Source: Trypanosoma brucei (lineage: Eukaryota). From it: a stretch of 64,000 nucleotides of DNA. Shown here piece by piece: positions 5,920 to 42,232 of the stretch. Numbering within the stretch: the first letter of the stretch is position 1; each line of letters opens with the position of its first letter. The stretch spans positions 2,400,001 through 2,464,000 of the forward strand of contig CM000207.1 in assembly GCA_000002445.1 (NCBI GenBank). Direction: 5' to 3'. The position numbers and the translations under genes are program-made. The notes beneath the pieces are model-generated. The model did no database searches and was not told the origin of the DNA. It was given only the letters and a program-made list of their open reading frames with translations.

Positions 5920-8325
5920 ATGAGAGCAAACACAGAAAATTCGGTTATGATACTATTGTGATGCAGTCATTTCGGAAAGACGTGCAAAGGCGGTAGTGTT
6001 CAGCAGCGCAGCATTGTCGTCAAGGGAAACGGCGGGTAATGGGATGAGACAGTGGAGAACCCAGCACGCTGAAAGCTGAAGCACATTACAGACTCGTAGT
6101 GTTCAAGGAACGAACTGCACCTGCGTTAAGGTGCATGTCAACTTCAAAAATGCGAGGAATCAGCGCTGCTACTGAGAGGATTGTTGATTGCCACAGGAAG
6201 TGGCCCACCAACATGGTGCAGTGCGGTGCAATGAGGAGATCACTTGCTCACGCGACTCACAGAGGGAACTGAAGAGTATGCTACGGCCAAGTTAGAGCCA
6301 AGTGTACTGGACAGGATTATGAGGTGGGAACAGATAGGAACTAACAAGAAATCAAAACTACGTTTGTAAGATACACAAAGAAGAGGCGCACTGAAGATTA
6401 CTTCATGCCGCACTATTTTTGTGGCGGCCAAACTTAAAAGTGGAGAAGGGTAAAGGAAGTCAACGAGTGCCCGAAGCTTTTGTAATTATTTGGTTGAAGG
6501 AAGTTGCTCCAAAATGACGTGCGGAATGGCCGCGCAGCTAAGGCGGGAGAGAAAATTGTAGTAATTTAAAGCAAGGGTGAAGGAGCTTACCTGCTTATTT
6601 GCTTAAACGGCTGCACAGCAACCGTAGGGCAAAGAAATGGAATTCAGAAATACGGTAGAGGAAGATATGTGTACACGTGCAGCCGGTGTGGTTCCTTTGG
6701 GGTTCCGTTAGGTATTAAATGGGGGTAAAGCCATTGTCAATGACAGTGAGCACGAGGCCGAAGATAACGGCTGGTTCATCCGCTTACACAAGCAAATTTT
6801 TCAACAAACAGATACTTTTTTAACTTTCACTAACTGTAATTATATGCCTCTCAGTTAAACATAAGGCTAATAAATTCCAAAAGCGTTTCGATCGTAACGA
6901 TAGCGACATATGTCGCTAAGACACACATGAAAACATGCACAGTGGTCGTACCAAAGTATCCTCACCAGCGTAGCAACACAAAAAGTTAATGGAAATTTCC
7001 TATGGAAGAGAAACCATGCGATATTCCGGTAAGGCACTTGAAACCCTTCAGTAGCAGGCGATATCCACGGATCGTTAACAACATGGAATGAGAATCACAA
7101 CACACAAGGGGGAAAGGAATCGCAATTACTCTTTGAATATCAATACTTTTAGAGGGTCGAACTATCATCTGTCATCTGTCCCACGTGGCACTCTCACACA
7201 CCACATCAAGGGTGATGGGAGAAATTTTTTGTGGGAGCATACGATGGCCGATGAGTTGGTGAGAGATCAATTATGTTTGCAACACTGCCGTTTTGGTTAT
7301 TTTCTACTTGAGCACCTTTGATACAGTGGGCCATATCAGGGTTGTGCAATAAATGCGTAAAGTTAGTGGAGAAAAGTCTAACACCCTCTGCACCGCATCC
7401 TTACCAACAGAAGGAATGGCAGCAGCTCACTTAGATAAATCACTTCCCCCTGACAAGAATAGTTTAACAGAGGGCAGGTGAAAGGCACAGTGTTCAGCCT
7501 TTTACTGTTAAAAGCTGCAGTTACCTCCCTTCATTTTCTTACCAAACATCCCAAGACACAGCTTAAAGCATGGATTCTTTGTGGAAGACTTGACAGTGAG
7601 GAGAGGGAACGTGGATGGCTTTTCAGAAGGAACTGAATGTTATAGCTGTGATAGGAATCCGTATTTACTTCAGATAACTCGTCACGAAGAAAACAGGGTG
7701 TGAGGTGTTGGGAGGACATTTGGGGTCACGGTAATGCGGAAACGCGGCGACACCCACTCCATGTTGAATTTATATCCACACCGTTAATGTACTGGCAAAT
7801 CGGATATCCGCAGCGCCTTCTTACCCATAGAGTGCAAAGTGAAGAATACAAACTGACATTGACACTCTTCATTACTTCCAACATGTATTACACACGCGTT
7901 ACTCGGATGTAAGATATCGTGTGATTACAGGAGTTATTTCAAATATCAAGAGAGCTATGGAGAGTAATGGTTTCCTGATCTTTTTTCACCCATTCTGCCA
8001 TTTCATATCATCTCTCCCATGAAATTTCGATGATATGGGGAAACAATGTGTGGTGGAGCGTATATGTAAAAAGAAGACCTGAGGGCACTTTCACCCTGGG
8101 CACCTTGTCACACGAAATAGGAGCTATGGAAGACTTTCTCACTGAGGGTTGAGCCCCTTCCACACTATTTCATGGGATTCGTGCGAAGGGAAAACAGAAA
8201 AATTATGTTTTAGCAGTAGTCATGAAGAGTTTAATTTTGTGTGAAGTAATAACCCTGAGAACACTGAAACACTTCCATGAGATGTGTGGAAGAATGTCAA
8301 AATGTCAAGAAAGCTCAAAATACTT

Positions 8326-8355
8326 CACTTTTTGGTTCTTTTTTGATTTTGCTAG
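8326..8355 (+). promoter_or_regulatory. polyY tract + AG (8354-8355): predicted SL trans-splice acceptor for array gene 1, 5'UTR ~16 nt
   Basis: cttcactttttggttcttttttgattttgctAGagg, 17 nt before ATG 8372. It is conserved in every unit. Confidence 0.5.
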
Positions 8356-8371
8356 AGGACAAGGGTGAAAC

Positions 8372-9799
8372 ATGCAAGGCACTATGTACTGGGTTGTATT
8401 TTTAGTGGCGGTACTACAGGGTATTCATTTAGTGTCGGGCCAGGAGGAGATATTGAATGAACAAGAGTTTGAAGCGTTGTGTCGAATGATAAATTGGGCA
8501 GAAAGGGGACTGAAGCACATAAAAGTAACAAAACGAGTTACCCAAGAAGCTCTGAAAATAGGCGTAAGATATCTTGAAGTGGCCGGTGAGGAAAATGCTG
8601 CTGAACTCGCTGAGGCACAGGACTATTCTTGTACGAAGAGAATGGAGGATCGGAAAAGGAATTGTGGGCTGTACAAAACATTTTGGGAAGAGGCGCAGAG
8701 AGTATTGAACAAAGGGGTTGACAGCGGAGAAAGACCTGAGCGAAAAAAAAACGGCTTGCGGGAGCACAGTGCAGAGATTAGAAAAAAGGCAATGGAAGTG
8801 GCAGATATATATCACGAAATCGAAGCGAAGAGTCCATCTGGACAAGTAGAAAAGATTGAAGAACAGCTCAATAAAGCTCTTTATGGAAGGACACACACTG
8901 CTGAAGAGATAAGGGAAAGAGAAGAGCGAAGCAGGGTGTGCGGGAAAACATTACCAAATCCACCTAATAGAGAAGACCAATCACTAGCCGTGGATTTGCT
9001 GTGCTTGTGTGCAATGCACGGCTCTTGGAACGGCAGGGAGATATGCTGCGCAGACTGCACCACAGGAAGAAATAGCGAGGAGTGGAATCCAGAATCAAAC
9101 AGCGCGCACCGCTGGGAATTTCTGAAACAGAAGTGTGCGGGAGTCATTCCAAGCTATGGTAGCACGGGGGAAAGACTGCGTGATGCAAAACAAAATTTTA
9201 TGGATGCAGTAACGAAAATAACTACAAGGAGGGGGGAGCAGTTGTCCAAACTAGGAGAAAAGCAAAACAACAACGTAAAAGACTGCGGCGCGGACACAAG
9301 CAAGAGCCAAGGAATATGCATGCTGTACGGAGCAGTTGACGGAGTGAACCTGCCCTGGATGAAAACTTTGGAAAGTGTCGAAGACAGGATAGGACTTCTG
9401 ATGCAAGAGAGCCAAGACAAGACATCAAAACTTGAGAGAATTAAAGAGCTAAGTCAAGAGATAGAAAGCTTAATCAAAGGTGATACGGGGCGAGGAAGAC
9501 AACAGGGAAGACAGAAACGGAGTGTGGATACCGAGAACAGTGTCCCAGAAACCCCAGCTGACCCGAGCGATCCAACACAGTCAACCACAGATACCAATAG
9601 AAAAAAGCAAGGTGAAAGGAAACCGATATCAACAGGTAACGGTGCATCCAAAAGCTACGGTGGAGATGAGGTTGATTCTTACGATTCCAAATGCGATGGA
9701 GAAAACTCGGCATGCTCAGATTCACCAGCAAAGCCAACAGTAAAAAGCAGCAAAAGTGCTATAAATTGTCCACTGGGATTAATTTTGCTTTTGGTATAA
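8372..9799 (+). CDS. array paralog 1: secreted, GPI-anchored variant surface glycoprotein-like protein (475 aa), family unassigned
   Basis: Signal peptide MQGTMYWVVFLVAVLQGIHLVSGQ. Ten-plus Cys, including the LLCLCAMH..CCADCTTG block. Conserved RQKR, then a T/P/S/D-rich tail, then KCDGENSACSDSP, then the hydrophobic end INCPLGLILLLV (GPI-signal-like). Stop taa at 9797-9799 verified. Confidence 0.8.
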   Translation: MQGTMYWVVFLVAVLQGIHLVSGQEEILNEQEFEALCRMINWAERGLKHIKVTKRVTQEALKIGVRYLEVAGEENAAELAEAQDYSCTKRMEDRKRNCGLYKTFWEEAQRVLNKGVDSGERPERKKNGLREHSAEIRKKAMEVADIYHEIEAKSPSGQVEKIEEQLNKALYGRTHTAEEIREREERSRVCGKTLPNPPNREDQSLAVDLLCLCAMHGSWNGREICCADCTTGRNSEEWNPESNSAHRWEFLKQKCAGVIPSYGSTGERLRDAKQNFMDAVTKITTRRGEQLSKLGEKQNNNVKDCGADTSKSQGICMLYGAVDGVNLPWMKTLESVEDRIGLLMQESQDKTSKLERIKELSQEIESLIKGDTGRGRQQGRQKRSVDTENSVPETPADPSDPTQSTTDTNRKKQGERKPISTGNGASKSYGGDEVDSYDSKCDGENSACSDSPAKPTVKSSKSAINCPLGLILLLV

Positions 9800-12700
9800 A
9801 CGAAAAGTTCCAACACAAGGTAAGGAAAAAGAGATGGAATTGGTTGTGTTTGCGGCATCTCAATATTCCACACGGAGTGGGATGGTGTGCATTTCAAAAC
9901 TTGTACAGGAGACACGTGATGCGTCAGAGCAATCGTGCTCAGCAGCACAGCCATCCAGGAAGCCTAAACGAAAGAGGGAAATGTTGGGAGGGTTTATGCT
10001 TCGTGATACTAGTAATGCGTGTTGTTGAGAACCTTTTCATATTAAAAGGAACACTACAAAAACTGAAAGCATTTACGAATGATGGGAAAGCTCATAGAGG
10101 CTATAAACGGCTAAAATGTACCGGCCGTACTGAGTGGGTGGTGTGAAAATAAAAAGGGATATGTTGTAGAGAGTGTCAATACAGGAAGGCTACACAAATG
10201 GAAAGGAATAATAAATACAGAAAAAGGGACGTCATAATATTTTACTGAGCTCCATGCAGGAAGTGCAAGGGATATTTCCAATGGGGAAGTTGGGAAGGTT
10301 AAAAAAAAAGGCGAAAACATATGAGTGATAATGTAAATATAGTCTGATGGAAGGAAGTGTTGCTTTGGAAAAAGACAGACAAATAACTAAAAGAGGATTG
10401 ACTGGAGAAAATGATGCCAGGCGAAACACATAAAAAAATGGGTTCGGGAAGCATGGATATTTCGAACTTGGAACATAAAGACAAAAGAGCAGGAAAAGTT
10501 GTGGGAAATGGCATGTTATATATTTGCATCGTTATAGCAAAAAAAACTGTTTGGTGTGTCGAATGAGTGAAGGAACTGAGGCACTCAAGACCGCTGAATA
10601 AGAAAATGGAGAAGGAAAGCCACGGAAAGTAATGAGGGGATATCTTGAAAGCCGCGCACACAGACACGTACACTTGATAGCGGGGTGTGAAAAAGCAAGG
10701 AGTGGAACAAAAGCCTTCATCGCTATGATGGTTAAGAAATACGACACCACCACAATGCGCTGTATAATTCAAAGCAGACGTATTATTAAAGGGATCGGTA
10801 TTAGTGGAAATACCTGTGGTATTAACCTTTGCGGTGCTTGAAGTGATGGCATGAAAAAGATTAGAGATACCCTCTTCTGTGTTGTGTCGGATACATGGAA
10901 AAAGAAAGTGTGTGCTTGGCCTAAGGATGTAATGTGCTAAACCATAAGGCAGTAATAAAATACCTCAAAGCAATTCTATCGCCAAAAGGAATCGATGATG
11001 CTGTGGTTCAGACGAGAAATATCACACTACAGAATCCGACATTGCATGGGACGCAACTATGTGTCAACGCGGCGGTGATATAAGCTATCAAAGCAAAAAA
11101 TGATGCAATTATGGGGATTTATCATGCAGCAGCGTTGTCTACTATGGAAAATGCAGTAACCACTGAAAAGGAGGAAACATGCTTCAAGGAGCAAAAAGTA
11201 GCAGTGATTGCTGTAACAACAAGATTGTGGTTGTAAATAAAAAAAAAGAAAAGGAAGCGAAACTACGACCCAAGGATATTTAGAGTAGTATCGAAACTGC
11301 CTAAACATCACTAATGAATGCATATTTACCAAATGCGAATATATATGTATATGTGAATATATACGTACATCAATATTCTACAAAAATAGTGCTTTGCAGC
11401 GTGTGAGACTTTCAAAACATTTTTTGTGGAACACTTAAGCATAATTGTTGTTAATGGAAAATTGATCTATGGATACCTTCTTTTTGCTACATGTATTTTG
11501 AATTTGTTTGAGAGGAAAATGGTAACATCTCTGAGGTAAACTCTGGGACAATATAAAAGTGCTGGAGAAAATTTCTTGGTTTGACAGTAGCAATATCATG
11601 AACTAAAGAAGTGATTAAAAGATCTGTAACACGGGAGTATGTGCTTTTGCCATTGTACGATTTTCTTGATATATGCATTGAAGTGATTGATTGAATAGGG
11701 GTGCAAGTCTCATGAAACATGCTCTTCATTCAACCAAGGCTTTTTAGGAATATGCAGCAAAAGTCGAAAAATGACTGACTTGACAACCAAAATGGCGTCC
11801 CTATTCTATTAGTGAAAATTCGAATGAAACAGCACATAATGGAACTACATGAAAATTCAAAGGAAATGTGATATCAAATTCCTAACCCGCTGTATCAAAT
11901 TTCTCACACACCTTTCATAAAAGTATTTTTACATACATGTTTGAATTGAAAACACTCGACAAAATAATTTATGTGATCTGCGTATGAAATGTGTGATGAA
12001 TTCTGCCCAATCGTGCTAATCTCTCTATTATTGTTAAACCTCACCTTACCATTTGTTTCAGTAAAGGCAAGAAAGCAATATTAAATGATGAAATACTGTT
12101 AAACGGTGAAGTTACAAAGGAATATCTTTTCCGCAACAGAGAGTAACTATCTGAGAGGAGTTTAATGAACCGTGTACAATGATAGTGTCAGCACACTAAG
12201 TCTTGGAACAGCATAAACAGACTAGGATAACCAAAGGGGAAGAAGTGACACCTGGTGCTATGCAGTAACTAGCTTCAGAGGCAAAAAAAAGGCTGCTCAA
12301 TCCTATGGAAGCAATGTAACCTCACAGCCGTAGCAGTAGCGTGAATAAGAAAGGAAATGTGAACTTAGAAAAAACATATTGAACTCAAAGTGAAAAAGCA
12401 GAAGCAGTCAACCGCATAGAGGTATCAAAGGCATAACGTAGTTTGTTGGAAGGGGCGCCGAGCAAAATCAAGTTTTAGGCAGGTGATCCGGTATGGATGT
12501 ATCACACTGCACATGGATGCCACAAACCAAGAGACTTTGAATAGATGAAAGGAAAGATGAGAGACTTCGCGTCTATCAGGCGTGCTTGAGTTAGGGGCTG
12601 TAGTGGAAAGCAAACACAAACTGCTTACCCGAAGAGGGACAGTAACATGAACAATCCGAAATGGGTTTCAAACTATCTGGCACAATATCATTTTGACTGG

Positions 12701-15700
12701 GTCTGAGAGAGAGAGCTCTTTGGCCAGAGACAAACACGCGCGTTACTATAACCTTACAAATGACTCGAATACAGATATCAAATGCAATATTCTAAACGAA
12801 TAAAAACAAGGCTCAAGAGGCAACAATGCGGAAGATTCCGTTGAGTTACTTTACGTTAGCGTGAGGGTAGGAAAGAAAATGAAGAGATTTTGTGAATCTG
12901 GAAAAGGAAATGTGAGAACGCAACCCTACAACAGCTTTTAAAATATCCCATGGACTAAAGCGTTGAATAGAATTGACGGGAAAATGAGCAACCTGACTGT
13001 TAGCAAAGACAAGGGAAACTATGGCAAAGCTAACCTAGTTAAGCTGTGGCATCGCCAATTTAATTAAAACAAGCCAGAGTGAAGAGAGGATGCCATTCAG
13101 AGTTATAAGAAAGTAAAGCCATGAAAGTATAATTGGCACGATTACTTTGTTAAATTACGATACAAATACGAGTAAAACACAAATAATAATTATGGGAGCA
13201 AGCCAGGAGTTACCTGTGAAGGTGAAATTACTGCTGATTATAATAGTGCGGGTGTCTCTCGAATGAAACGCGAAAACCGTCGGCACAGTACAGCGTCCAC
13301 GCACTCAAACTGTGAAAGAGGATGTCAGTGGGTCAACGGTGAGATTGTGAGGCCACATCGCAAGCCAGTTATCTAAAACAGTGTGGGATTTGTTCAAACA
13401 TTACCCAGATTATATTTGTTTCTGTTTGTAAACGTGTGATTAGGCACTAAACTTCAATTCTAGCAGTGTTTGAATCTGTAGTACAATTAATATTTACCCC
13501 TTTCGTTTGAAAGTTAGTATAACTCTACGGTTTTGTCGGTCATTCAACGTAGTCTTGAAAGGGCCCAAAAGCACAAATACGTGACTTCTTAACATTTCAT
13601 CAGAGATGCACTACACCACACGGGTGAGCACATTGCCGTAACTAGGGGGTAGGTTTACTTTTTTGACACAGCTTCAAAAAGGTAGAACCTCGAATATGAT
13701 GCAAGTGGACCTCAGGTGGGGACTATCTGGCGCAAGAAAACGCTAGCAGAACTCGGGTCTCTCCCTCGCTTGAGGTAAAAGTTGTGTTGCATTGCGGGCT
13801 TCGGTGACGATTGCTCACTCCTTATTCAGATTTTTGAGGTTACCAAGCATGTAAAGCTAAGGGAGTGCAGTTCTTTCTCTGTAGTTGTTGGGTGAGCGGT
13901 TATGTAAATGTGTATATCTTCACATTTTTATATTTAAATGTTGGCTTTTACGAATTTTTTTGTTTGCAATGGGTTGAAATTACACGGCAACGACGTGGTT
14001 CAAGGTGTGAATTTTACTGATTTAGTTTTTGACGCCATCTCAGTTAGTGAAAGGATACGATGGCGATCCGCAAAGGGGAGGAAAAGGGCTTCCAAATTGC
14101 AGAGACGTACCAAAAATTGACAGGAATTTAGGTTGCTCAAAGGAAAATAATTATAGATATTAAGCGGCAAGAAACTTTGTGCTGGAGAGGCTTCTGGGGT
14201 TGGATTCTGTTTGACAGAAACTGCACGCCATGGCTGATAAGTGAGCTGCTTCCCATGAGGCATAGACGGGTGAATAATGCTTCCCTCAGTTTTTTGAGTG
14301 GGAATTCGTCGCTGTAAAAGATTCACCTGGTGTGAAAAGAATTGATAGAGCGTATCCGAACATTTTAATTACTCCAATCTAAGGAACAAGAAGTGTGAAA
14401 CATCTGGTGAGGGTAGAACGTCTTGTTACCTTAGCTCCCTTGGGCGGAACACAGGTGTAGGGTCGTGTAAAAAAGGGACGAGAGGTGTGTCTTCCTATTG
14501 AAGTTGGAGGTCTCTAGCTGAAAAAAAAAAGCCACTGACTCTAGTGACACGAATAGTCCAGACAATATCCCTAGGCGCGCGCACCTCACAGGCCGGCAGA
14601 ATAGTAAAACTCAATTTTCACTACAATCCAGTTACCAAACTGTACATTTAATCTTACTCTTCCCACTGTAAAAACATATAAGTGTTATTCAACTCGGGTG
14701 CTGAATCCATACCAAAGCACATAGAGGTAACAAATAAAAGTCGCTATTTCTGAAAACTAATTCACACTTGCCTGCGAATGCACACCTTTCCTTTAACATT
14801 CGTAAGACAGTATAGGGTCCTACTGAAGTCCTGGTTTACACAAGATATTATATACGATTGGTCACGCAGTCACCTCTGCTGCTTTCCGGACAATAAAGTG
14901 ACTAACTGCGAAGCATGGCTCTCAATGGGAGAGATTTTCTAAGCGGGTTAAAGAGCCATACTATGGAGACTCATACATGTGTATATTATTGTTGGGGTGA
15001 TTCACCAGCCCTTTTTACAAAATGTATAATATCCTCTTGCATTTGGCAGTGAAGCATAAAAGCGTGCTGCTGTTGTACTGAATATATCCCCTTTCCTTTG
15101 CGGTACCCTCCTTTCTCTTTATAAATAATGAGCCTGGTGTGAATTAGAAGAGTGTGCGAATTTATCCAAAATAGAGTGGGTGTAATGGGAAGACACATCA
15201 TGTGGAGGACACTCCGTATGCTAGCAGCTGATGCTTACGGTGGAAGTGGAAGAAGCATTCAGTATCCGAGGCGTAGTGCCACCTTGCCATAAATTGGCTG
15301 TCGGAGTTGACAAGAGATCACTGAAGTGGCAACCCTCCAAGGGCCACTTAGTGAAGATGTGCGCCATTATGTCGCTAAGACACACATGAAAACATGCACA
15401 GTGGTCGTACCAAAGTATCCTCACCAGCGTAGCAACACAAAAAGTTAATGGAAATTTCCTATGGAAGAGAAACCATGCGATATTCCGGTAAGGCACTTGA
15501 AACCCTTCAGTAGCAGGCGATATCCAAGGATTGTTAACAACATGGAATGAGAATCACAACACACAAGGGGGAAAGGAATCGCAATTACTCTTTGAATATC
15601 AATACTTTTAGAGGGTCGAACTATCATCTGTCATCTGTCCCACGTGGCACTCTCACACACCACATCAAGGGTGATGGGAGAAATTTTTTGTGGGAGCATA

Positions 15701-16784
15701 CGATGGCCGATGAGTTGGTGAGAGATCAATTATGTTTGCAACACTGCCGTTTTGGTTATTTTCTACTTGAGCACTTTTGATACAGTGGGCCATATCAGGG
15801 TTGTGCAATAAATGCGTAAAGTTAGTGGAGAAAAGTCTAACACCCTCTGCACCGCATCCTTACCAACAGAAGGAATGGCAGCAGCTCACTTAGATAAATC
15901 ACTTCCCCCTGACAAGAATAGTTTAACAGAGGGCAGGTGAAAGGCACAGTGTTCAGCCTTTTACTGTTAAAAGCTGCAGTTACCTCCCTTCATTTTCTTA
16001 CCAAACATCCCAAGACACAGCTTAAAGCATGGATTCTTTGTGGAAGACTTGACAGTGAGGAGAGGGAACGTGGATGGCTTTTCAGAAGGAACTGAATGTT
16101 ATAGCTGTGATAGGAATCCGTATTTACTTCAGATAACTCGTCACGAAGAAAACAGGGTGTGAGGTGTTGGGAGGACATTTGGGGTCACGGTAATGCGGAA
16201 ACGCGGCGACACCCACTCCATGTTGAATTTATATCCACACCGTTAATGTACTGGCAAATCGGATATCCGCAGCGCCTTCTTACCCATAGAGTGCAAAGTG
16301 AAGAATACAAACTGACATTGACACTCTTCATTACTTCCAACATGTATTACACACGCGTTACTCGGATGTAAGATATCGTGTGATTACAGGAGTTATTTCA
16401 AATATCAAGAGAGCTATGGAGAGTAATGGTTTCCTGATCTTTTTTCACCCATTCTGCCATTTCATATCATCTCTCCCATGAAATTTCGATGATATGGGGA
16501 AACAATGTGTGGTGGAGCGTATATGTAAAAAGAAGACCTGAGGGCACTTTCACCCTGGACACCTTGTCACACGAAATAGGAGCTATGGAAGACTTTCTCA
16601 CTGAGGGTTGAGCCCCTTCCACACTATTTCATGGGATTCGTGCGAAGGGAAAACAGAAAAATTATGTTTTAGCAGTAGTCATGAAGAGTTTAATTTTGTG
16701 TGAAGTAATAACCCTGAGAACACTGAAACACTTCCATGAGATGTGTAGAAGAATGTCAAAATGTCAAGAAAGCTCAAAATACTT

Positions 16785-16814
16785 CACTTTTTGGTTCTTT
16801 TTTGATTTTTCTAG
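16785..16814 (+). promoter_or_regulatory. polyY tract + AG (16813-16814): predicted SL acceptor for array gene 2
   Basis: Same conserved element as at 8326-8355. Confidence 0.5.
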
Positions 16815-16830
16815 AGGACAAGGGTGAAAC

Positions 16831-18255
16831 ATGCAAGGCACTATGTACTGGGTTGTATTTTTAGTGGCGGCACTACAGGGTATTCATTTAGTGTTGGGCC
16901 AGGAGGAGATATTGAATGAACAAGAGTTTGAAGCGTTGTGTCGAATGATAAATTGGGCAGAAAGGGGACTGAAGCACATAAATTTGGCACGACAGGTTAC
17001 TGAAGAAGCTCTGAAAATAGGCGTAAGATATCTTGAAGTGGCCGGCGAGGAGGAGGTTACAGAGCTTACCGAACTGCAGGAGAAGGCGTGCATGAGCAAC
17101 AAGAAGACAAGTCACGAAAAGAATTGTGGACTGTACAAAACATTTTGGGAAGAGTCACAGGAAGCATTGAAGAGGACTGCCAGATCGCAAGCGCCTCATC
17201 GAGGAAGGAACAGTTTGCAATATCATACAGCGGAAGGAATTAAAATCAAAGTAATGGAAGTGGCGGATACGTATCACGAGGTCAAAAAAGAAATCTTGAA
17301 ACTTAGAACGGATAACATGGAGGAGCAACTCAATCAAGCTCTTTATGGAGTAGGACATTTTACTGGAGAGGTAAAAGGAGGGGATTCGGACCGAAGCAGA
17401 GTGTGTGGACAAAACCTGGGCAACCGCGACGCCACTGGAGGTTGGTCACTAGCCGTGGATTTGTTGTGCTTGTGTGCGAGGCACATATCCTGGAGCAGCG
17501 TGAAGAGTGTATGCTGTGAGGAGTGCGGTACGGGAGAGAACAGCAACACATGGAACCCAGCATTAGACGGAGCACTACACTGGGAATTTCTAAAAGAGAA
17601 TTGTCCAGGTGATAATACAAATCACCATACAGAGGGCGAACAGCTGAAAAGCGCCAAAAAGAATTTTATGGCAAAAGTGTCTAAAATAGCCACTATCCCA
17701 TATAGAACTATGTACAAGCTTGGAGACAGTAAAAATATACAAACAAAGCAATGCGGGGCTAACATAGGCACTGGCCAGGGAATATGCGTGTACTACGGAT
17801 CTGATAATGGAGCGAATCTGCACTGGATGCAAGCGTTGGAAAGGGTTGAAAATGATGTTGAAGTTCTTCTGCAAGACAGTAAATATAAGTCGACTAAGCT
17901 AAAGAGGATTAAAGAGCTAAGTCAAGAGATTCAGAACCTAATCGAAGGTGGCACGCCGCGGGGAAGACAGAAACGGAGTGTGGATACCGAGAACAGTGTC
18001 CCAGAAACCCCAGCTGACCCGAGCGATCCAACACAGTCAACCACACATACCAATGAAAAAAAGCGAATTGTAAGAAAACCGATATCAACAGGTAACAATG
18101 CATCCAAAAGCTACGGTGGAGATGAGGTTGATTCTTACGATTCCAAATGCGATGGAGAAAACTCGGCATGCTCAGATTCACCAGCAAAGCCAACAGTAAA
18201 AAGCAGCAAAAGTGCTATAAATTGTCCACTGGGATTAATTTTGCTTTTGGTATAA
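16831..18255 (+). CDS. array paralog 2 (474 aa), same family
   Basis: Signal peptide MQGTMYWVVFLVAALQGIHLVLGQ. The C-terminal ~110 aa are near-identical to paralog 3. The internal block RVCGQNL..ATGGWSLAVDLLCLCA is shared with paralog 4. Confidence 0.8.
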   Translation: MQGTMYWVVFLVAALQGIHLVLGQEEILNEQEFEALCRMINWAERGLKHINLARQVTEEALKIGVRYLEVAGEEEVTELTELQEKACMSNKKTSHEKNCGLYKTFWEESQEALKRTARSQAPHRGRNSLQYHTAEGIKIKVMEVADTYHEVKKEILKLRTDNMEEQLNQALYGVGHFTGEVKGGDSDRSRVCGQNLGNRDATGGWSLAVDLLCLCARHISWSSVKSVCCEECGTGENSNTWNPALDGALHWEFLKENCPGDNTNHHTEGEQLKSAKKNFMAKVSKIATIPYRTMYKLGDSKNIQTKQCGANIGTGQGICVYYGSDNGANLHWMQALERVENDVEVLLQDSKYKSTKLKRIKELSQEIQNLIEGGTPRGRQKRSVDTENSVPETPADPSDPTQSTTHTNEKKRIVRKPISTGNNASKSYGGDEVDSYDSKCDGENSACSDSPAKPTVKSSKSAINCPLGLILLLV

Positions 18256-21200
18256 ACGAAAAGTTCCAACACAAGGTAAGGAAAAAGAGATGGAATTGGT
18301 TGTGTTTGCGGCATCTCAATATTCCACACGGAGTGGGATGGTGTGCATTTCAAAACTTGTACAGGAGACATGTGATGCGTCAGAGCAATCGTGCTCAGCA
18401 GCACAGCCATCCAGGAAGCCTAAACGAAAGAGGGAAATGTTGGGAGGGTTTATGCTTCGTGATACTAGTAATGCGTGTTGTTGAGAACCTTTTCATATTA
18501 AAAGGAACACTACAAAAACTGAAAGCATTTACGAATGATGGGAAAGCTCATAGAGGCTATAAACGGCTAAAATGTACCGGCCGTACTGAGTGGGTGGTGT
18601 GAAAATAAAAAAGTATATGTTGTAGAGAATGTCGATACCGGAAGGCTACAAGAATGGAAGGAATAATAAATACAGAAAAAGAGACGCCATACTTTTCACT
18701 GAGCTATCTACAGGACATGGAAGGGATATTTCCAATGGGGAAGTTGGGAAGGTTAAAAAAAAAGGCGAAAACATATGAGTGATAATGTAAATATAGTCTG
18801 ATGGAAGGAAGTGTTGCTTTGGAAAAAGACAGACAAATAACTAAAAGAGGATTGACTGGAGAAAATGATGCCAGGCGAAACACATAAAAAAATGGGTTCG
18901 GGAAGCATGGATATTTCGAACTTGGAACATAAAGACAAAAGAGCAGGAAAAGTTGTGGGAAATGGCATGTTATATATTTGCATCGTTATAGCAAAAAAAA
19001 CTGTTTGGTGTGTCGAATGAGTGAAGGAACTGAGGCACTCAAGACCGCTGAATAAGAAAATGGAGAAGGAAAGCCACGGAAAGTAATGAGGGGATATCTT
19101 GAAAGCCGCGCACACAGACACGTACACTTGATAGCGGGGTGTGAAAAAGCAAGGAGTGGAACAAAAGCCTTCATCGCTATGATGGTTAAGAAATACGACA
19201 CCACCACAATGCGCTGTATAATTCAAAGCAGACGTATTATTAAAGGGATCGGTATTAGTGGAAATACCTGTGGTATTAACCTTTGCGGTGCTTGAAGTGA
19301 TGGCATGAAAAAGATTAGAGATACCCTCTTCTGTGTTGTGTCGGATACATGGAAAAAGAAAGTGTGTGCTTGGCCTAAGGATGTAATGTGCTAAACCATA
19401 AGGCAGTAATAAAATACCTCAAAGCAATTCTATCGCCAAAAGGAATCGATGATGCTGTGGTTCAGACGAGAAATATCACACTACAGAATCCGACATTGCA
19501 TGGGACGCAACTATGTGTCAACGCGGCGGTGATATAAGCTATCAAAGCAAAAAATGATGCAATTATGGGGATTTATCATGCAGCAGCGTTGTCTACCATG
19601 GAAAATGCAGTAACCACTGAAAAGGAGGAAACATGCTTCAAGGAGCAAAAAGTAGCAGTGATTGCTGTAACAACAAGATTGTGGTTGTAAATAAAAAAAA
19701 AGAAAAGGAAGCGAAACTACGACCCAAGGATATTTAGAGTAGTATCGAAACTGCCTAAACATCACTAATGAATGCATATTTACCAAATGCGAATATATAT
19801 GTATATGTGAATATATACGTACATCAATATTCTACAAAAATAGTGCTTTGCAGCGTGTGAGACTTTCAAAACATTTTTTGTGGAACACTTAAGCATAATT
19901 GTTGTTAATGGAAAACTGATCTATGGATACCTTCTTTTTGCTACATGTATTTTGAATTTGTTTGAGAGGAAAATGGTAACATCTCTGAGGTAAACTCTGG
20001 GACAATATAAAAGTGCTAAAGGAAATTTCTGGGTTTGACAGTAGCAATATCATGAACTAAAGAAGTGATTAAAAGATCTGTAACACGGGAGTATGTGCTT
20101 TTGCCATTGTACGATTTTCTTGATATATGCATTGAAGTGATTGATTGAATAGGGGTGCAAGTCTCATGAAACATGCTCTTCATTCAACCAAGGCTTTGTA
20201 AGAATATGCAGCAAAAGTCGAAAAATGACTGACTTGACAACCAAAATGGCGTCCCTATTCTATTAGTGAAAATTCGAATGAAACAGCACATAATGGAACT
20301 ACATGAAAATTCAAAGGAAATGTGATATCAAATTCCTAACCCGCTGTATCAAATTTCTCACACACCTTTCATAAAAGTATTTTTACATACATGTTTGAAT
20401 TGAAAACACTCGACAAAATAATTTATGTGATATGCATGTGAAATGTGTGATGAATTCTGCCCAATCGTGCTAATCTCTCTATTATTGTTAAACCTCACCT
20501 TACCATTTGTTTCAGTAAAGGCAAGAAAGCAATATTAAATGATGAAATACTGTTAAACGGTGAAGTTACAAAGGAATATCTTTTCCGCAACAGAGAGTAG
20601 CTATCTGAGAGGAGTTTAATGAACCGCGTACAATGATAGTGTCAGCACACTAAGTCTTGGAACAGCATAAACAGACTAGGATAACCAAAGGGGAAGAAGT
20701 GACACCTGGTGCTATGCAGTAACTAGCTTCAGAGGCAAAAAAAAGGCTGCTCAATCCTATGGAAGCAATGTAACCTCACAGCCGTAGCAGTAGCGTGAAT
20801 AAGAAAGGAAATGTGAACTTAGAAAAAACATATTGAACTCAAAGTGAACAAACAGAAGCAGTCAACCGCATAGAGGTATCAAAGGCATAACGTAGTTTGT
20901 TGGAAGGGGCGCCGAGCAAAATCAAGTTTTAGGCAGGTGATCCGGTATGGATGTATCACACTGCACATGGATGCCACAAACCAAGAGACTTTGAATAGAT
21001 GAAAGGAAAGATGAGAGACTTCGCGTCTATCAGGCGTGCTTGAGTTAGGGGCTGTAGTGGAAAGCAAACACAAACTGCTTACCCGAAGAGGGACAGTAGC
21101 ATGTACAATCCGAAATGGGTTTCAAACTATCTGGCACAATTCCATTTTGACTGGGTGTGAGAGAGAGTTCTTGGGACAGAGACAAACACGCGCGTTACTA

Positions 21201-24200
21201 TAACCTTACAAATGACTCGAATACAGATATCAAATGCAATATTCTAAATGAACAATAAAAACAAGGCTCAAGAGGCAACAATGCATAAGATTCCGTTGAG
21301 TTACTTTACGTTAGCGTGAGGGTAGGAAAGAAAATGAAGAGATTTTGTGAATCTGGAAAAGGAAATGTGAGAACGCAACCCTACAACAGCTTTTAAAATA
21401 TCCCATGGACTAAAGCGTTGAATAGAATTGACGGGAAAATGAGCAACCTGACAGTGAGCACAAACAAGGGAAACTATGGCAAAGCTTACATAGTTAAGCT
21501 GTGGCATGTCAATTTAATTAAAACGTGCCAGAGTGAAGAGAGGATGCCATTCAGAGTTATAAGAAAGCAAAGCCATGAAAGTGTAATTGACACGATTACT
21601 TTGTTACAATCCGATACAAATACGAGTAAAACACAAATAATAATTATGGGAGCAAGCCAGGAGTTACCTGTGAAGGTGAAATTACTGCTGATTATAATAG
21701 TGCGAGTGGCTCTTGACACAAATGCGAAAACCGTAAGCACAGTTCAGCGTCCACGAGCTCAAACTGTGAAACAGGATGAAAGCTGGTCAACGGTGAGATT
21801 GTGAGGCCACATCGCGAGTCAGTCATCTAAAACAGTGTGAATTTCGTTCAAACATTACCCAGGTTATATTTGTTTCTGTTTGTAAACGTGTGATTAGGCA
21901 CTAAACTTCAATTCTAGCAGTGTTTGAATCTGTAGTACAATTAATATTTACCCCTTTCGTTTGAAAGTTAGTATAACTCTACGGTTTTGTCGGTCATTCA
22001 ACGTAGTCTTGAAAGGGCCCAAAAGCACAAATACGTGACTTCTTAACATTTCATCAGAGATGCACTACACCACACGGGTGAGCACATTGCCGTAACTAGG
22101 GGGTAGGTTTACTTTTTTGACACAGCTTCAAAAAGGTAGAACCTCGAATATGATGCAAGTGGACCTCAGGTGGGGACTATCTGGCGCAAGAAAACGCTAG
22201 CAGAACTCGGGTCTCTCCCTCGCTTGAGGTAAAAGTTGTGTTGCATTGCGGGCTTCGGTGACGATTGCTCACTCCTTATTCAGATTTTTGAGGTTACCAA
22301 GCATGTAAAGCTAAGGGAGTGCAGTTCTTTCTCTGTAGTTGTTGGGTGAGCGGTTATGTAAATGTGTATATCTTCACATTTTTATATTTCAATGTTGGCT
22401 TTTACGAATTTTTTTGTTTGCAATGGGTTGAAATTACACGGCAACGACGTGGTTCAAGGTGTGAATTTTACTGATTTAGTTTTTGACGCCATCTCAGTTA
22501 GTGAAAGGATACGATGGCGATCCGCAAAGGGAAGGAAAGAGACTTCCGGATTGCAGAGACGTACCAAAAATTGACAGGAATTTAGGTTGCTCAAAGGAAA
22601 ATAATTATAGATACTAAGCGGTAAGAAACTTTGTGCTGGAGAGGCTTCTGGGGTTGGATTCTGTTTGACAGAAACTGCACGCCATGACTGATAAGTGAGC
22701 TGCTTCCCCTGAGGCATAGACGTGTGAAAAATGCTTCCCTCAGTTTTTTGAGTGGGAATTCGTCGCTGTAAAAGATTCACCTGGTGTGAAAAGAATTGAT
22801 AGAGCGTATCCGAACATTTTAACTATTCCAATCTAAGGAACAAGGAGTGTGAAACATCTGGTGAGGGTAGAACGTCTTGTTACCTTAGCTCCCTTGGGCG
22901 GAACACAGGTGTAGGGTCGTGTAAAAAAGGGACGAGAGGTGTGTCTTCCTATTGAAGTTGGAGGTCTCTAGCTGAAAAAAAAAAGCCACTGACTCTAGTG
23001 ACATGAATAGTCCAGACAATATCCCTAGGCACGTGCACCTCACAGGCCGGCAGAATAGTAAAACTTAATTTTCACTACAATCCAGTTACCAAACTGTACA
23101 TTTAATCTTACTCTTCCCACTGTAGAAACATATAAGTGTTATTCAACTCGGGTGCTGAATCCATACCAATTCACATAGAGGTAACAAATAAAAGCCGCTA
23201 TTTCTGAAAACTAATTCACACTTGCCTGCGAATGCACACCTCTCCTTTAACATTCGTAAGACAGTATAGGGTCCTACTGAAGTCCTGGTTTACACAAGAT
23301 ATTATATACGATTGGTCACGCAGTCACCTCTGCTGTTTTCCGGACAATAAAGTGACTAACTGCGAAGCATGGCTCTCAATGGGAGAGATTTTCTAAGCGG
23401 GTTAAAGAGCCACACTATGGAGACTCATACGTGTGTATATTATTGTTGGGGTGATTCACCAGCCTTTTTTACAAAATGTATAATATCCTCTTGCATTTGG
23501 CAGTGAAGCATAAAAGCGTGCTGCTGTTGTACTGAATATATCCCCTTTCCTTTGCGGTACCCTCCTTTCTCTTTATAAATAATGAGCCTGGTGTGAATTA
23601 GAAGAGTGTGCGAATTTATCCAAAATAGAGTGGGTGTAATGGGAAGACACATCACGTAGAGGACACTCCGTATGCTAGCAGCTGATGCTTACGGTGGAAG
23701 TGGAAGAAGCATTCAGTATCCGAGGCGTAGTGCCACCTTGCCATAAATTGGCTGTCGGAGTTGACAAGAGATCACTGAAGTGGCAACCCTCCAAGGGCCA
23801 CTTAGTGAAGATGTGCGCCATAATGTCGCTAAGACACACATGAAAACATGCACAGTGGTCGTGCCAAAGTATCCTCACCACAGTAGCAACACAAAAAGTA
23901 AGGGTGAGTTCCTATGGAAGAGAAACCATGCGATATTCCGGTAAGGCACTTGAAACCCTTCAGTAGCAGGCGATATCCAAGGATTGTTAACAACATGGAA
24001 TGAGAATCACAACACACAAGGGGGAAAGGAATCGCAATTACTCTTTGAATATCAATACTTTTAGAGGGTCGAACTATCATCTGTCATCTGTCCCACGTGG
24101 CACTCTCACACACCACATCAAGGGTGATGGGAGAAATTTTTTGTGGGAGCATACGATGGCCGATGAGTTGGTGAGAGATCAATTATGTTTGCAACACTGC

Positions 24201-25237
24201 CGTTTTGGTTATTTTCTACTTGAGCACTTTTGATACAGTGGGCCATATCAGGGTTGTGCAATAAATGCGTAAAGTTAGTGGAGAAAAGTCTAACACCCTC
24301 TGCACCGCATCCTTACCAACAGAAGGAATGGCAGCAGCTCACTTAGATAAATCACTTCCCCCTGACAAGAATAGTTTAACAGAGGGCAGGTGAAAGGCAC
24401 AGTGTTCAGCCTTTTACTGTTAAAAGCTGCAGTTACCTCCCTTCATTTTCTTACCAAACATCCCAAGACACAGCTTAAAGCATGGATTCTTTGTGGAAGA
24501 CTTGACAGTGAGGAGAGGGAACGTGGATGGCTTTTCAGAAGGAACTGAATGTTATAGCTGTGATAGGAATCCGTATTTACTTCAGATAACTCGTCACGAA
24601 GAAAACAGGGTGTGAGGTGTTGGGAGGACATTTGGGGTCACGGTAATGCGGAAACGCGGCGACACCCACTCCATGTTGAATTTATATCCACACCGTTAAT
24701 GTACTGGCAAATCGGATATCCGCAGCGCCTTCTTACCCATAGAGTGCAAAGTGAAGAATACAAACTGACATTGACACTCTTCATTACTTCCAACATGTAT
24801 TACACACGCGTTACTCGGATGTAAGATATCGTGTGATTACAGGAGTTATTTCAAATATCAAGAGAGCTATGGAGAGTAATGGTTTCCTGATCTTTTTTCA
24901 CCCATTCTGCCATTTCATATCATCTCTCCCATGAAATTTCGATGATATGGGGAAACAATGTGTGGTGGAGCGTATATGTAAAAAGAAGACCTGAGGGCAC
25001 TTTCACCCTGGACACCTTGTCACACGAAATAGGAGCTATGGAAGACTTTCTCACTGAGGGTTGAGCCCCTTCCACACTATTTCATGGGATTCGTGCGAAG
25101 GGAAAACAGAAAAATTATGTTTTAGCAGTAGTCATGAAGAGTTTAATTTTGTGTGAAGTAATAACCCTGAGAACACTGAAACACTTCCATGAGATGTGTA
25201 GAAGAATGTCAAAATGTCAAGAAAGCTCAAAATACTT

Positions 25238-25267
25238 CACTTTTTGGTTCTTTTTTGATTTTGCTAG
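25238..25267 (+). promoter_or_regulatory. polyY tract + AG (25266-25267): predicted SL acceptor for array gene 3
   Basis: Same conserved element. Confidence 0.5.
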
Positions 25268-25283
25268 AGGACAAGGGTGAAAC

Positions 25284-26708
25284 ATGCAAGGCACTATGTA
25301 CTGGGTTGTATTTTTAGTGGCGGTACTACAGGGTATTCATTTAGTGTCGGGGCAGGATATAGTGAATCAACAGGAGTTTGAAGCGTTGTGTCGAATGATA
25401 AATTGGGCAGAAAGGGGACTGAAGCACATAAAACTAGCTAAACAAGTGACGGAAGAAGCTCTGAGCATCGGCATAAGATATCTTGAAGTCGCTGATGCAG
25501 ATAGCGCTGCTCAACTTGGCGCGGCAGAACACGATGCTTGTATGGATAAAAGAGAGGTTCGTGAAAAAAACTGCGGATTGTACAAAACATTTTGGGAAGA
25601 GTCACAGAGGCTATTAAAGGAAAAGCATGAAAGATCGCAAGCACATCACCGAGGAAGGAACAGTTTGCAATATCATACAGCGGAAGAAATTAAAAGCAAA
25701 GTAATGGAAGTGGCGGATATATTTCACGAAGTCAAGTGGGAACTCTTAGAACTCAAAGTAAATAATATGGAGGAGCAACTCAATCAAGCTCTTTATGGAA
25801 GGACATACTCCGCAGAAGAAATAAGGGAAAGAGAAGAGCGAAGCAGGGTGTGCGGACAAAGCTCGCGTAGTGAAATGATTATTGGGGGCCAATCACTAGT
25901 AATGGATTTGTTGTGCTTGTGTGCAATGCACAGTTCTTGGAAAGAGATGAGGGTATGCTGCGCAGACTGCACTACGGGAGAGAACGGCAACACATGGAAC
26001 CCAGGATCAAACGGAGCACCACGCTGGAAATTTCTGAAACAAAAGTGTGCGGGAGCCACCACTAGTTACGTTAGCGTACGCAAAACCCTGCGTGGTGCAA
26101 AACAGGATTTTATGGATGCCGTAACGGAAATAAGTGCAAACAGAAGAACAAATTTGTACAAACTTGGGGAAAAGCAAAACAAAGAAATAAAAGACTGTGG
26201 AGCAGACAAAAACAGCAAAGAAGGAATATGTGTGTTTTACAGAGAGCGTGATGGAGTGGTGTTTTGGATGAAAGCGTTGGAAAACGTGGACAACAAGATG
26301 GAAGTTCTGCTTCAAGACAGAACAAAGAAGACATCAAAACTTGAGAGAATTAAAGAGCTAAGTCAAGAGATAGAAAGCTTAATCAAAGGTGATACGGGGC
26401 GAGGAAGACAACAGGGAAGACAGAAACGGAGTGTGGATACCGAGAACAGTGTCCCAGAAACCCCAGCTGACCCGAGCGATCCAACACAGTCAACCACACA
26501 TACCAATGAAAAAAAGCGAATTGTAAGAAAACCGATATCAACAGGTAACAATGCATCCAAAAGCTACGGTGGAGATGAGGTTGATTCTTACGATTCCAAA
26601 TGCGATGGAGAAAACTCGGCATGCTCAGATTCACCAGCAAAGCCAACAGTAAAAAGCAGCAAAAGTGCTATAAATTGTCCACTGGGATTAATTTTGCTTT
26701 TGGTATAA
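25284..26708 (+). CDS. array paralog 3 (474 aa), same family, clearly chimeric
   Basis: The N-terminus is like paralog 1. The RVCGQSSRSEMIIGG block is shared with paralog 5. The C-terminus follows paralog 1 (GDTGRGRQQGRQKRSVDTENS) up to PTQSTT, then follows paralog 2 (HTNEKKRIVRKPISTGNNASKS). Confidence 0.8.
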   Translation: MQGTMYWVVFLVAVLQGIHLVSGQDIVNQQEFEALCRMINWAERGLKHIKLAKQVTEEALSIGIRYLEVADADSAAQLGAAEHDACMDKREVREKNCGLYKTFWEESQRLLKEKHERSQAHHRGRNSLQYHTAEEIKSKVMEVADIFHEVKWELLELKVNNMEEQLNQALYGRTYSAEEIREREERSRVCGQSSRSEMIIGGQSLVMDLLCLCAMHSSWKEMRVCCADCTTGENGNTWNPGSNGAPRWKFLKQKCAGATTSYVSVRKTLRGAKQDFMDAVTEISANRRTNLYKLGEKQNKEIKDCGADKNSKEGICVFYRERDGVVFWMKALENVDNKMEVLLQDRTKKTSKLERIKELSQEIESLIKGDTGRGRQQGRQKRSVDTENSVPETPADPSDPTQSTTHTNEKKRIVRKPISTGNNASKSYGGDEVDSYDSKCDGENSACSDSPAKPTVKSSKSAINCPLGLILLLV

Positions 26709-32700: not shown

Positions 32701-33705
32701 TGGGCCATATCAGGGTTGTGCAATAAATGCGTAAAGTTGGTGGAGAAAAGTCTAACACCCTCTGCACCGCATCCTTACCAACAGAATGAGTAGCAGCAGC
32801 TCCCTGAGATAAATCACTTCCCCCTTACAAGAATAGTTTAACAGAGGGCAGGCGAAAGGCACAGTGTTCGGCCTTTCAATGTTAAAAGCTGCAGTTAACT
32901 CCATTTATTTTCTTACTAAACATCCCAAGACACAGCTTAAAGCATGGATTCTTTGTGGAAGACTTGACAGTGAGGAGAGGAAACGTGGATGGCTTTTCAG
33001 AAGGAACTGAATGTTATAGCTGTGATAGGAATCCGTATTTACTTCGGGAAAGTCGTCACGAAGAAAACAGGGTGTGAGGTGTTGGGAGGACATTTGGGGT
33101 CACGGTAATGGGGATACGCGGCGATGCCCACTCCATGCTGAATTTATATCCACACCGTTAATGTACTGGCAAATCGGATATCCGCAGCGCCTTCTTACCC
33201 ATAGAGTGCAAAGTGAGGAGTACAAACTGACATTGGCACTTTTCATTACTTCCAACATGTATTACACACGCGTTACTCGGATGTAAGATATCGTGTGATT
33301 ACAGGAGTTATTTCAAATATTAATAAAGCTATGGAGAGTAATAGTCTCCTTATCCTTTTTCACCCAATCTGTCATTTCATATAGTTTCTTCCATGAGAGT
33401 TCGATGATATGGAACAATAATGTGTGGTGGAGCATATGTGTGAAAAGAGGAACTGACGGCACTTTTACTCCTGTCACCGGGTAAAATGAATTAGGAGCTA
33501 TGGAAGACTTTCTCATTGAGGGTTATGACGCTGCCTCACTATTTCATGGGATTCGTGCGAAGGGAAAACAGAAAAATTATGTTTCAGCAGTAGTCATGAA
33601 AATCTTACTTTTTTGTACCTGAAGTAATAACCCTGAGAACACTGAAACACTTCCATGAGACGTGTAGAAGAATGTCGAAATGCCAAGAAAGATCATAATA
33701 CTTCA

Positions 33706-33735
33706 CTTTTTGGTTCTTTTTTAATTTTGCTAAAG
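33706..33735 (+). promoter_or_regulatory. polyY tract + AG (33734-33735): predicted SL acceptor for array gene 4
   Basis: Conserved element, slightly diverged (ttaattttgctaaAGacaagg). Confidence 0.45.
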
Positions 33736-33760
33736 ACAAGGGTGAAACATCCAAGGCACT

Positions 33761-41100: not shown

Positions 41101-42189
41101 ATGGTCAGTGAGTTGGTGAAAAATGGAGCATATTTGCAGCACTGCCGTTTTTGTTATTTTCTACTCCAGCACTTTTGATACAGTGGGCCATATCAGGGTT
41201 GTGCAATAAATGCGTAAAGTTGGTGGAGAAAAGTCTAACACCCTCTGCACCGCATCCTTACCAACAGAATGAGTAGCAGCAGCTCCCTGAGATAAATCAC
41301 TTCCCCCTTACAAGAATAGTTTAACAGAGGGCAGGCGAAAGGCACAGTGTTCGGCCTTTCAATGTTAAAAGCTGCAGTTAACTCCCTTCATTTTCTTACC
41401 AAACATCCCAAGACACAGCTTAAAGCACGGATTCTTTGTGAAATACTCGTCGGTGAGGAGAGGAAACGTGGATGGCTCTTCAGAAGGGACTGAATGTTAT
41501 AGCTGTGATAGGAATCCGTATTTACTTCGGGAAAGTCGTCACGAAGAAAACAGGGTGTGAGGTGTTGAGAGGACATTTTGAGGTCACAGTAATGGGGAAA
41601 CGCGGCGACACCCACTCCATGTTGAATTTATATCCACACCGTTAGTGTACTGGCAAATCGGATATCCGCAGCGCCTTCTTACCCATAGAGTGCAAAGTGA
41701 AGAATACAAACTGACATTGGCACTTTTCATTACTTCCAACATGTATTACACACGCGTTACTCGGATGTAAGATATCGTGTGATTACAGGAGTTATTTCAA
41801 ATATTAATAAAGCTATGGAGAGTAATAGTCTCCTTATCCTTTTTCACCCAATCTGTCATTTCATATAGTTTCTTCCATGAGAGTTCGATGATATGGAACA
41901 ATAATGTGTGGTGGAGCATATGTGTGAAAAGAGGAACTGACGGCACTTTTACTCTTGTCACCGGGTAAAATGAATTAGGAGCTATGGAAGACTTTCTCAT
42001 TGAGGGTTATGACGCTGCCTCACTATTTCATGGGATTCGTGCGAAGGGAAAACAGAAAAATTATGTTTCAGCAGTAGTCATGAAAATCTTACTTTTTTGT
42101 ACCTGAAGTAATAACCCTGAGAACACTGAAACACTTCCATGAGACGTGTAGAAGAATGTCGAAATGCCAAGAAAGATCATAATACTTCA

Positions 42190-42219: not shown

Positions 42220-42232
42220 ACAAGGGTGAAGC

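Follow-up and report, generated by a model that had tools for sequence, protein, structure and literature searches.

In the canonical variant surface glycoprotein (VSG), a flexible, protease-accessible linker follows straight after the C-terminal helices of the N-terminal domain and leads into a small disulfide-bonded C-terminal domain and a glycosylphosphatidylinositol (GPI) signal; this linker is classically protease sensitive. Here we describe the corresponding region of five tandem VSG-like genes in a 64,000-nucleotide stretch of the Trypanosoma brucei genome (NCBI GenBank assembly GCA_000002445.1, contig CM000207.1, positions 2,400,001 to 2,464,000 of the forward strand), referred to below as the window and numbered from its first letter. 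All five predicted proteins carry the basic tetrapeptide RQKR between their ectodomain and C-terminal tail, and it had been proposed from the DNA alone (the original prediction) that this is a kexin/furin-type proprotein convertase site from which the ectodomain could be released or, alternatively, a surface-exposed hinge. On the analysis reported here, RQKR is probably part of an ordinary VSG-type interdomain hinge, in which R-x-K-R arises by accident from a basic low-complexity sequence that is held uniform by gene conversion.

The array proteins resemble canonical VSGs also in that their C-x6-C aligns with the last Cys pair of the canonical C-terminal domain. They differ from them in that this domain is shrunk to one Cys pair within a ~75-residue stalk predicted to be disordered and in that the hinge has a strict R-x-K-R, which is missing from the linkers of 148 of 149 relatives. 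Procyclin (EP/GPEET) is likewise a GPI-anchored trypanosome protein with a protease-sensitive part ahead of an acidic, Pro-rich, extended stalk, but it is an insect-stage protein with long EP or GPEET repeats, whereas the array stalk is nonrepetitive and has internal Lys/Arg residues. The MSG proteins of Pneumocystis reportedly have a conserved Kex1 site at their recombination junction, a dibasic site exactly where a conserved block prone to recombination meets a variable cassette of the surface antigen; there, however, the junction is said to be N-terminal and to be served by a dedicated Kex1, while the array site is at the C-terminal one and has no known kexin to serve it. A comparable basic-site/subtilisin shedding system is that of Plasmodium MSP1, which SUB1/SUB2 cut. 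A consensus basic site between an ectodomain and a GPI-anchored remnant is found as well in a Drosophila GPI-anchored fibroblast growth factor (FGF) cut by furin (PMC9203819). Unlike the array proteins, the Drosophila FGF and MSP1 are demonstrated to be cleaved, and the protease is known.

The RQKR site and its invariance

Self-BLASTN of the window and the spacing of the five similar open reading frames (ORFs) revealed an array of ~4.6 tandem repeat units on the forward strand (6903..46181), each with one VSG-like gene and with a repeat period of 8453-8477 bp (~8.46 kb). As originally described, all five ORFs carry both RQKR and the sequence that follows it, so that GRQKR-SV(D/N)(T/P)ENSVPETPADPSDPTQS is found in 5/5 array copies, with a lone synonymous difference in the RQKR codons (CGG in copies 1 to 3, CGC in copies 4 and 5). 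The pattern given for the residues upstream, G(R/Q)(Q/R)G, was less exact: GRQKR is present in every copy, but the preceding part reads GRGRQQGRQKR in copies 1 and 3, GRGGQRGRQKR in copies 4 and 5, and GGTPRGRQKR in copy 2, where the pattern fails because 12 nt (4 amino acids) have been deleted. The copy 1 hinge holds two imperfect 12-nt units, GGAAGACAACAG and GGAAGACAGAAA, and the deletion in the copy 2 hinge (17935-17976) takes out one of the two imperfect GGAAGACA-containing units, which indicates that hinge length varies by slippage. Outside the window, RQKRSV was present in 4/4 relatives, namely, two more TREU927 proteins, one T. b. gambiense protein, and one T. equiperdum protein; these and the five array copies make up the nine-member close family. 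A KGD tripeptide (RGD in copy 4) stands right after the last helix of the N-terminal domain in 8/9 members of this family, copy 2 having EGG instead; it lies at 9476-9484 in copy 1 and at 34862-34870 in copy 4 and could be an integrin-type adhesion motif or chance.

The identity of the site extends far into the DNA around it, the tail being part of a block of 90-100% DNA identity that reaches ~2.7 kb into noncoding DNA. Between repeat units, the DNA is 90-98% identical at ~6885-8475 and ~9463-12250, and the identity drops to 62-70% within the N-terminal domain only. At a resolution of 60 nt, the units fall outside this domain into two haplotype groups, copies 1-3 and copies 4-5, each ~100% identical internally and 78-98% identical to the other. 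The window contains just two tail haplotypes, copies 1-3 being alike from ~9500 on and copies 4-5 being alike. The alignment proposed as a check of invariance therefore gives a divided answer, RQKR being identical in the five copies, which nevertheless amount to two tail haplotypes in effect and not to five independent paralogs. Inside the N-terminal domain, the closest pair of copies shifts along the gene (1-4 at 8518-8640, 2-3 at 8725-8755, 2-4 at 8872-8902, 3-5 at 8929-9046, and 1-3 from 9436), in a pattern that looks like the outcome of segmental gene conversion between VSG-like genes at a chromosome-internal site. On the 3' side, this variable cassette ends at the hinge. Across the cassettes, in which synonymous divergence (dS) is near saturation, the closest paralog switches every 100-300 nt.

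We then compared the substitution rates of the two parts of the protein among the five copies by the Nei-Gojobori method. For the N-terminal domain, dS was 0.59-1.07 and the ratio of nonsynonymous to synonymous divergence (dN/dS) was 0.31-0.51; for the tail, the respective values were 0.01-0.20 and 0.55-2.7, which places the synonymous divergence of the tail 5- to 50-fold below that of the N-terminal domain. Since the tail shares its identity with kilobases of noncoding flank and combines a low dS with a higher dN/dS, its invariance points to recent homogenization and not to purifying selection on the site. Judged from these values, the tail is young, homogenized, and, if anything, under less constraint than the ectodomain. 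The earlier argument that the site is invariant while the ectodomain varies, put forward as a sign of function, consequently fails, because the homogenized block spans noncoding DNA and the tail has a dN/dS above that of the N-terminal domain.

By these measures, and with the linkers of the wider family lacking the motif (see below), its conservation did not exceed the neutral or background level. In the alignment of the nine-member family, 63 of the 107 tail columns (59%) are invariant, and ~2 invariant runs of at least 6 residues are expected by chance in such a tail; the runs RQKRSV and PLGLILLLV are of this kind. When the composition of copy 1 was shuffled, R-x-[KR]-R arose in 27% of whole-protein shuffles and, for the 16-residue hinge, in 18%; its occurrence does not go beyond chance.

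The motif in the wider VSG_B family

A full profile search of the VSG_B family returned 167 relatives at E values up to 1e-3, and 149 representatives of the wider family were inspected for the motif. R-x-[KR]-R occurred anywhere in the protein in 11/149 of them and in the linker in a single one (P0017, with REKR at a different linker position), the remaining 148 linkers being without it. Relatives with the same layout (an N-terminal domain, a low-complexity linker, a small Cys module, and a "PLxLFLLL" signal) have Gly/Arg-rich or otherwise polar linkers that lack R-x-K-R, P0017 excepted, and the close VSG-related (VR)-like relatives have Gly/Arg-rich hinges without the motif, such as that of P0014, RPGRGGGSPHSGSRGAEGRNKW. 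A phmmer search with the tail against the 158 proteins collected detected it in none beyond the nine-member family. From the sequences compared, the dibasic site is a feature of one small, Trypanozoon-specific subfamily. A search of related families had been suggested in the original prediction, with orthologues that lack the dibasic motif and suffer no functional consequence named as an outcome that would speak against a functional site. The motif is in fact found in all nine close members, but such an outcome was obtained in part, given that wider relatives with the same hinge-stalk-GPI layout do not have it.

Architecture of the proteins around the site

An AlphaFold2 model was built on the nine-sequence alignment and had a mean predicted local distance difference test score (pLDDT) of 51, weak as a whole but clear for the long helices of the N-terminal domain. 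Its last predicted helix of the N-terminal domain comprises residues 347-369 (pLDDT, 76-88), and RQKR (residues 380-383) lies ~11 residues beyond this end of the VSG_B domain. Residues 372-475 have a pLDDT of 26-41 and no secondary structure in this low-confidence model. Residues 369-383 carry a net charge of +5 and residues 384-404 one of -5; the latter 21 residues contain no Lys or Arg, 24% Asp/Glu, and 52% Ser/Thr/Pro and follow a Pro-x-x rhythm (PET-PAD-PSD-PTQ). Over the whole segment 384-458, Ser, Thr, and Pro make up 36% of the residues, and Ser/Thr runs are absent. The description of this tail as mucin-like seems overstated, considering that the 52% applies to its first 21 residues only; T. 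brucei is not known to carry out glycosylation of the mucin-type O-GalNAc kind.

Closer VR-like relatives have mini C-terminal domains with four Cys residues, and the last C-x6-C of these domains (CEWNGDAC, CDWEEGTC, and CEWNGSEC) lines up with C441-x6-C448 near the end of the stalk, as does that of canonical VSGs (CNWDGKEC and CKWEGETC). By this alignment, C441 and C448 are probably a vestige of the final Cys pair in the VSG C-terminal domain, and the tail as a whole looks like a degenerate form of that domain. The C-terminal segment SSKSAINCPLGLILLLV would be a GPI signal, judging by its likeness to b-type VSG signals. Within this predicted signal, the T. b. gambiense and T. equiperdum relatives have Gly in place of C466 of copy 1 (9767-9769), a residue that is thus not part of a conserved disulfide. 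The layout first proposed (an ectodomain, a basic site, an acidic Pro/Ser/Thr stalk, a Cys pair, and a GPI-type signal) is borne out, the Asp/Glu/Tyr-rich stretch, the Cys pair (C441 and C448 in copy 1), and the hydrophobic C terminus being present in all five proteins. A surface-exposed hinge, the second of the two options offered at that time, agrees with a site 11 residues past the last VSG_B helix in a segment of pLDDT <50.

Identity of the genes and their genomic context

Each of the five proteins has a 100% identical counterpart among the Trypanosoma brucei brucei TREU927 entries titled "variant surface glycoprotein (VSG, atypical), putative," which lie on a 3,057,547-bp contig. Pfam VSG_B (PF13206, the b-type VSG N-terminal domain) matched residues 9-358 over profile positions 2-351 of 352 with an E value of 5.2e-84. 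The nine-sequence family profile matched the solved structure of VSG1954 (8b3w) over residues 32-356 (E=3.3e-7); a search of the PDB with a single protein alone gave no match, the VSG structure being reached by the profile only. The VSG 3' untranslated region (3'UTR) 16-mer TGATATATTTTAACAC was not found anywhere in the window, even with 2 mismatches, and C441 and C448 are the only Cys residues of the C-terminal region before the GPI signal, versus 4 or 8 in the canonical VSG C-terminal domain. The genes consequently lack both of these marks of a canonical, antigenically variable VSG and are to be regarded as VSG related or atypical, not as canonical archive VSGs. A regular 8.46-kb tandem array is also not the usual layout of the VSG archive.

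Jensen et al. described VR genes Tb09.244.2200, Tb09.244.2240, Tb09.244.2280, Tb09.244.2310, and Tb09.244.2330, which adjoin the retrotransposon hot spot (RHS) gene Tb09.244.2180 and give low-abundance, bloodstream-enriched transcripts (PMC2771046). The array genes probably correspond to these genes, a putative mapping that is based on the presence of an RHS gene just after copy 5 as well. The array genes share with the VR or "atypical VSG" genes (the chromosome-internal, b-type VSG-like class of Marcello and Barry) the VSG_B domain, the position of a tandem array beside an RHS gene, and the absence of the 16-mer, and with no difference at the gene level, they belong to that family. The five genes are chromosome internal, are already annotated, and code for VSG-related ("atypical VSG") surface proteins of T. 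brucei. The MISP family, which also consists of five tandem paralogs (on chromosome 7), was ruled out by the VSG_B domain and the match to the "atypical VSG" entries.

Table 1. Positions of the array genes and of the features discussed in the text, in window coordinates
Feature	Position	Strand	Description
Copy 1	8372..9799	+	475 aa; XP_827706; signal peptide, VSG_B N-terminal domain (residues 9-358), hinge, stalk predicted to be disordered, GPI-type signal
Copy 2	16831..18255	+	474 aa; XP_827707; hinge 12 nt shorter (GGTPRGRQKR)
Copy 3	25284..26708	+	474 aa; XP_827709
Copy 4	33761..35185	+	474 aa; XP_827712; RGD replaces KGD at the hinge start
Copy 5	42233..43654	+	473 aa; XP_827715
RQKR codons, copies 1-5	9509-9520, 17965-17976, 26418-26429, 34895-34906, 43364-43375	+	Residues R380-R383 in copy 1
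Hinge, copy 1 (K369-R383)	9476..9520	+	KGDTGRGRQQGRQKR; 40% Arg/Lys, Gly-rich
Stalk, copy 1 (S384-K458)	9521..9745	+	Predicted to be disordered (pLDDT 26-32); acidic Pro-x-x segment (PETPADPSDPTQ), basic patch NRKKQGERKP, acidic Tyr-containing segment
C441-x6-C448, copy 1	9692..9715	+	Aligned with the last Cys pair of relatives' C-terminal domains
Predicted GPI-attachment-type C-terminal signal, copy 1	9746..9796	+	SSKSAINCPLGLILLLV; resembles 17-residue b-type VSG signals, e.g., SNSFVIKTSPLLLAFLLF
Variable mosaic N-terminal-domain cassette, unit 1	8488..9500	+	57-80% mean pairwise identity; closest paralog shifts along the gene
3' homogenized block, unit 1	9436..12250	+	Hinge, tail, and ~2.4 kb of downstream noncoding DNA; 90-100% identity between units

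Several features surround the genes of the array. Immediately 5' of it lies a single-copy ORF of 435 amino acids (4132-5439, forward strand) that matches the A-type VSG domain PF00913 weakly (E=8.7e-7) and has a hydrophobic N terminus and a GPI-like C terminus; self-BLASTN found no paralog of it in the window, and its exact sequence had no match in the protein collection searched. Within the repeat unit, the stretch at 12250-13900 and its counterparts in later units are just ~70-75% identical between units and contain no ORF of at least 70 amino acids; this stretch may represent either a spacer that evolves fast or a gene that has decayed. The RHS protein gene (47587-49359, reverse strand; RHSP, E=8.5e-56; RHS_N and DUF7578) is located ~4 kb past copy 5, and since it lies on the opposite strand, the array ends at a convergent strand switch. 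Farther on, two reverse-strand ORFs of 232 and 235 amino acids (58718-59416 and 63279-63986) have no Pfam match; one of the pair is Pro/Thr/Ala rich with a KKKRGRK basic cluster, and the other is rich in N-x-S/T sequons.

Discussion

Each array protein begins with a signal peptide, which is followed by the b-type VSG N-terminal domain (~345 residues), a hinge of ~15 residues that is rich in Gly, Arg, and Gln and ends in RQKR, a stalk of ~75 residues, and a GPI-type signal. The stalk is predicted to be disordered, is net acidic with Pro, Ser, and Thr, and ends in the vestigial C-x6-C of a VSG C-terminal domain. RQKR itself most likely arose in this lineage as a by-product of a basic hinge of low complexity made from a duplicated 12-nt unit, and the hinge would separate the stalk from the folded domain as a flexible spacer exposed to solvent. 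The motif lies just inside the 3' block of the repeat unit, a block homogenized by gene conversion or unequal crossing-over, and it is invariant because it falls within this block, which takes in the hinge, the tail, and >2 kb downstream. The N-terminal-domain cassette, in turn, is older, mosaic, and exempt from the homogenization. The architecture, the place of the site in it, the homogenization of the DNA, and the lack of the motif in the wider family are seen directly in the data; a function as a hinge and the absence of dedicated processing are inferred.

Four points weigh against this interpretation. The furin consensus is well matched (Arg at P4, Lys at P2, Arg at P1, Ser at P1', Val at P2'), and the stretch around the site is predicted to be disordered. 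RQKRSV is retained in 9/9 known family members, including those of T. b. gambiense and T. equiperdum, whereas the positions immediately before it are variable. R383 has been preserved through the one synonymous change, CGG/CGC. Finally, the assignment of disorder is soft, because the model is of low confidence (mean pLDDT of 51, nine-sequence alignment).

The first two of these points are also what recommends the reading of RQKR-SV as a real proprotein-convertase-type site, cut by a T. brucei S8 peptidase in the secretory pathway or by a host furin-family enzyme at the surface, after which the ectodomain would be released or held noncovalently and a short, acidic, GPI-anchored stalk would be left. 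We consider this reading unlikely, and it is quite unlikely that a VSG-like ectodomain is cut from a GPI-anchored acidic stalk at RQKR-SV by a trypanosome S8 subtilisin or host furin specifically. RQKR followed by SV does match R-x-[KR]-R with permissive P1' and P2' residues in the five copies and the four outside relatives, two of them from other Trypanozoon taxa, and the site is in a predicted disordered hinge of a protein with an N-terminal hydrophobic signal peptide, which would route it through the Golgi. A cut after RQKR would expose the N terminus SVDTENSVPETPADPSDPTQSTT or SVNPENSVPE. Against this stand the concerted evolution of the array, which fully explains the conservation, the high dN/dS of the tail, the number of invariant runs expected by chance, and the wider-family linkers without the motif. 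Oligopeptidase B, which is not known to act on anything but short peptides, was set aside as the cleaving enzyme. It has dibasic specificity (PMC2998157) and is released into plasma (PMC2998157, PMC4376731). The serine peptidase inventory of T. brucei lists 20 genes, none of the S1 family and two of them S8 subtilisin-like (Tb927.3.4230 and Tb927.11.3780); these two would be the candidate enzymes, but neither gave an RNA interference phenotype, and their specificity is not described (PMC4376731). A kexin/furin-type enzyme is not documented in T. brucei; the literature searched did not describe any trypanosome surface protein as being processed in the kexin/furin manner, and the searchable papers made no mention of the RQKR hinge motif. 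Taken together, our data neither exclude nor support convertase cleavage at RQKR.

The basic hinge could instead be an opportunistic trypsin-sensitive point, at which tsetse midgut trypsins or trypsin-like proteases of host plasma clip the protein at the change of host, strip off the ectodomain, and leave an acidic, Pro-rich, protease-resistant stub. Such clipping has precedents, as tsetse proteases trim the N terminus of procyclin and proteases cut canonical VSGs at the hinge, and the sequence would lend itself to it, with 5 or 6 Arg/Lys among 15 predicted disordered residues, followed by the 21-residue segment without Lys or Arg, with 24% Asp/Glu, and with Pro-x-x periodicity. However, the second basic patch of the stalk, NRKKQGERKP, would be cut too, so that no clean stub is predicted, and the probable array genes, if the putative mapping holds, give low-abundance, bloodstream-form-enriched transcripts (PMC2771046). 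We regard this outcome as rather improbable.

That RQKR matters as charge and not as a scissile bond, the Arg-rich hinge binding the acidic stalk, the anionic membrane or GPI glycans, or host glycosaminoglycans or else serving as a K/RGD adhesion motif, is very improbable: the opposite charges of residues 369-383 and 384-404 and the KGD/RGD directly after the last helix in 8/9 family members would fit it, but the argument is compositional only, copy 2 lacks KGD and part of the basic cluster, and disordered linkers often contain charge blocks of that sort.

If the site were cleaved after all, a processing pathway not yet described in African trypanosomes would be at work, and VSG-related proteins of unknown function would act as shed or two-chain molecules. 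A convertase cut, if true, would be the first kexin/furin-type maturation or shedding step for a surface protein of African trypanosomes and would provide a substrate for the two orphan S8 peptidases. Under the reading that we favor, a VSG-type hinge kept uniform by gene conversion, the useful result is a negative one: invariance among tandem paralogs in the T. brucei genome cannot be read as functional constraint, because the flanks of the repeat, including the 3' coding ends, are homogenized while the cassettes for the N-terminal domain remain mosaic and diverged. Any further claim from this array of a motif conserved in all paralogs calls for the same caution.

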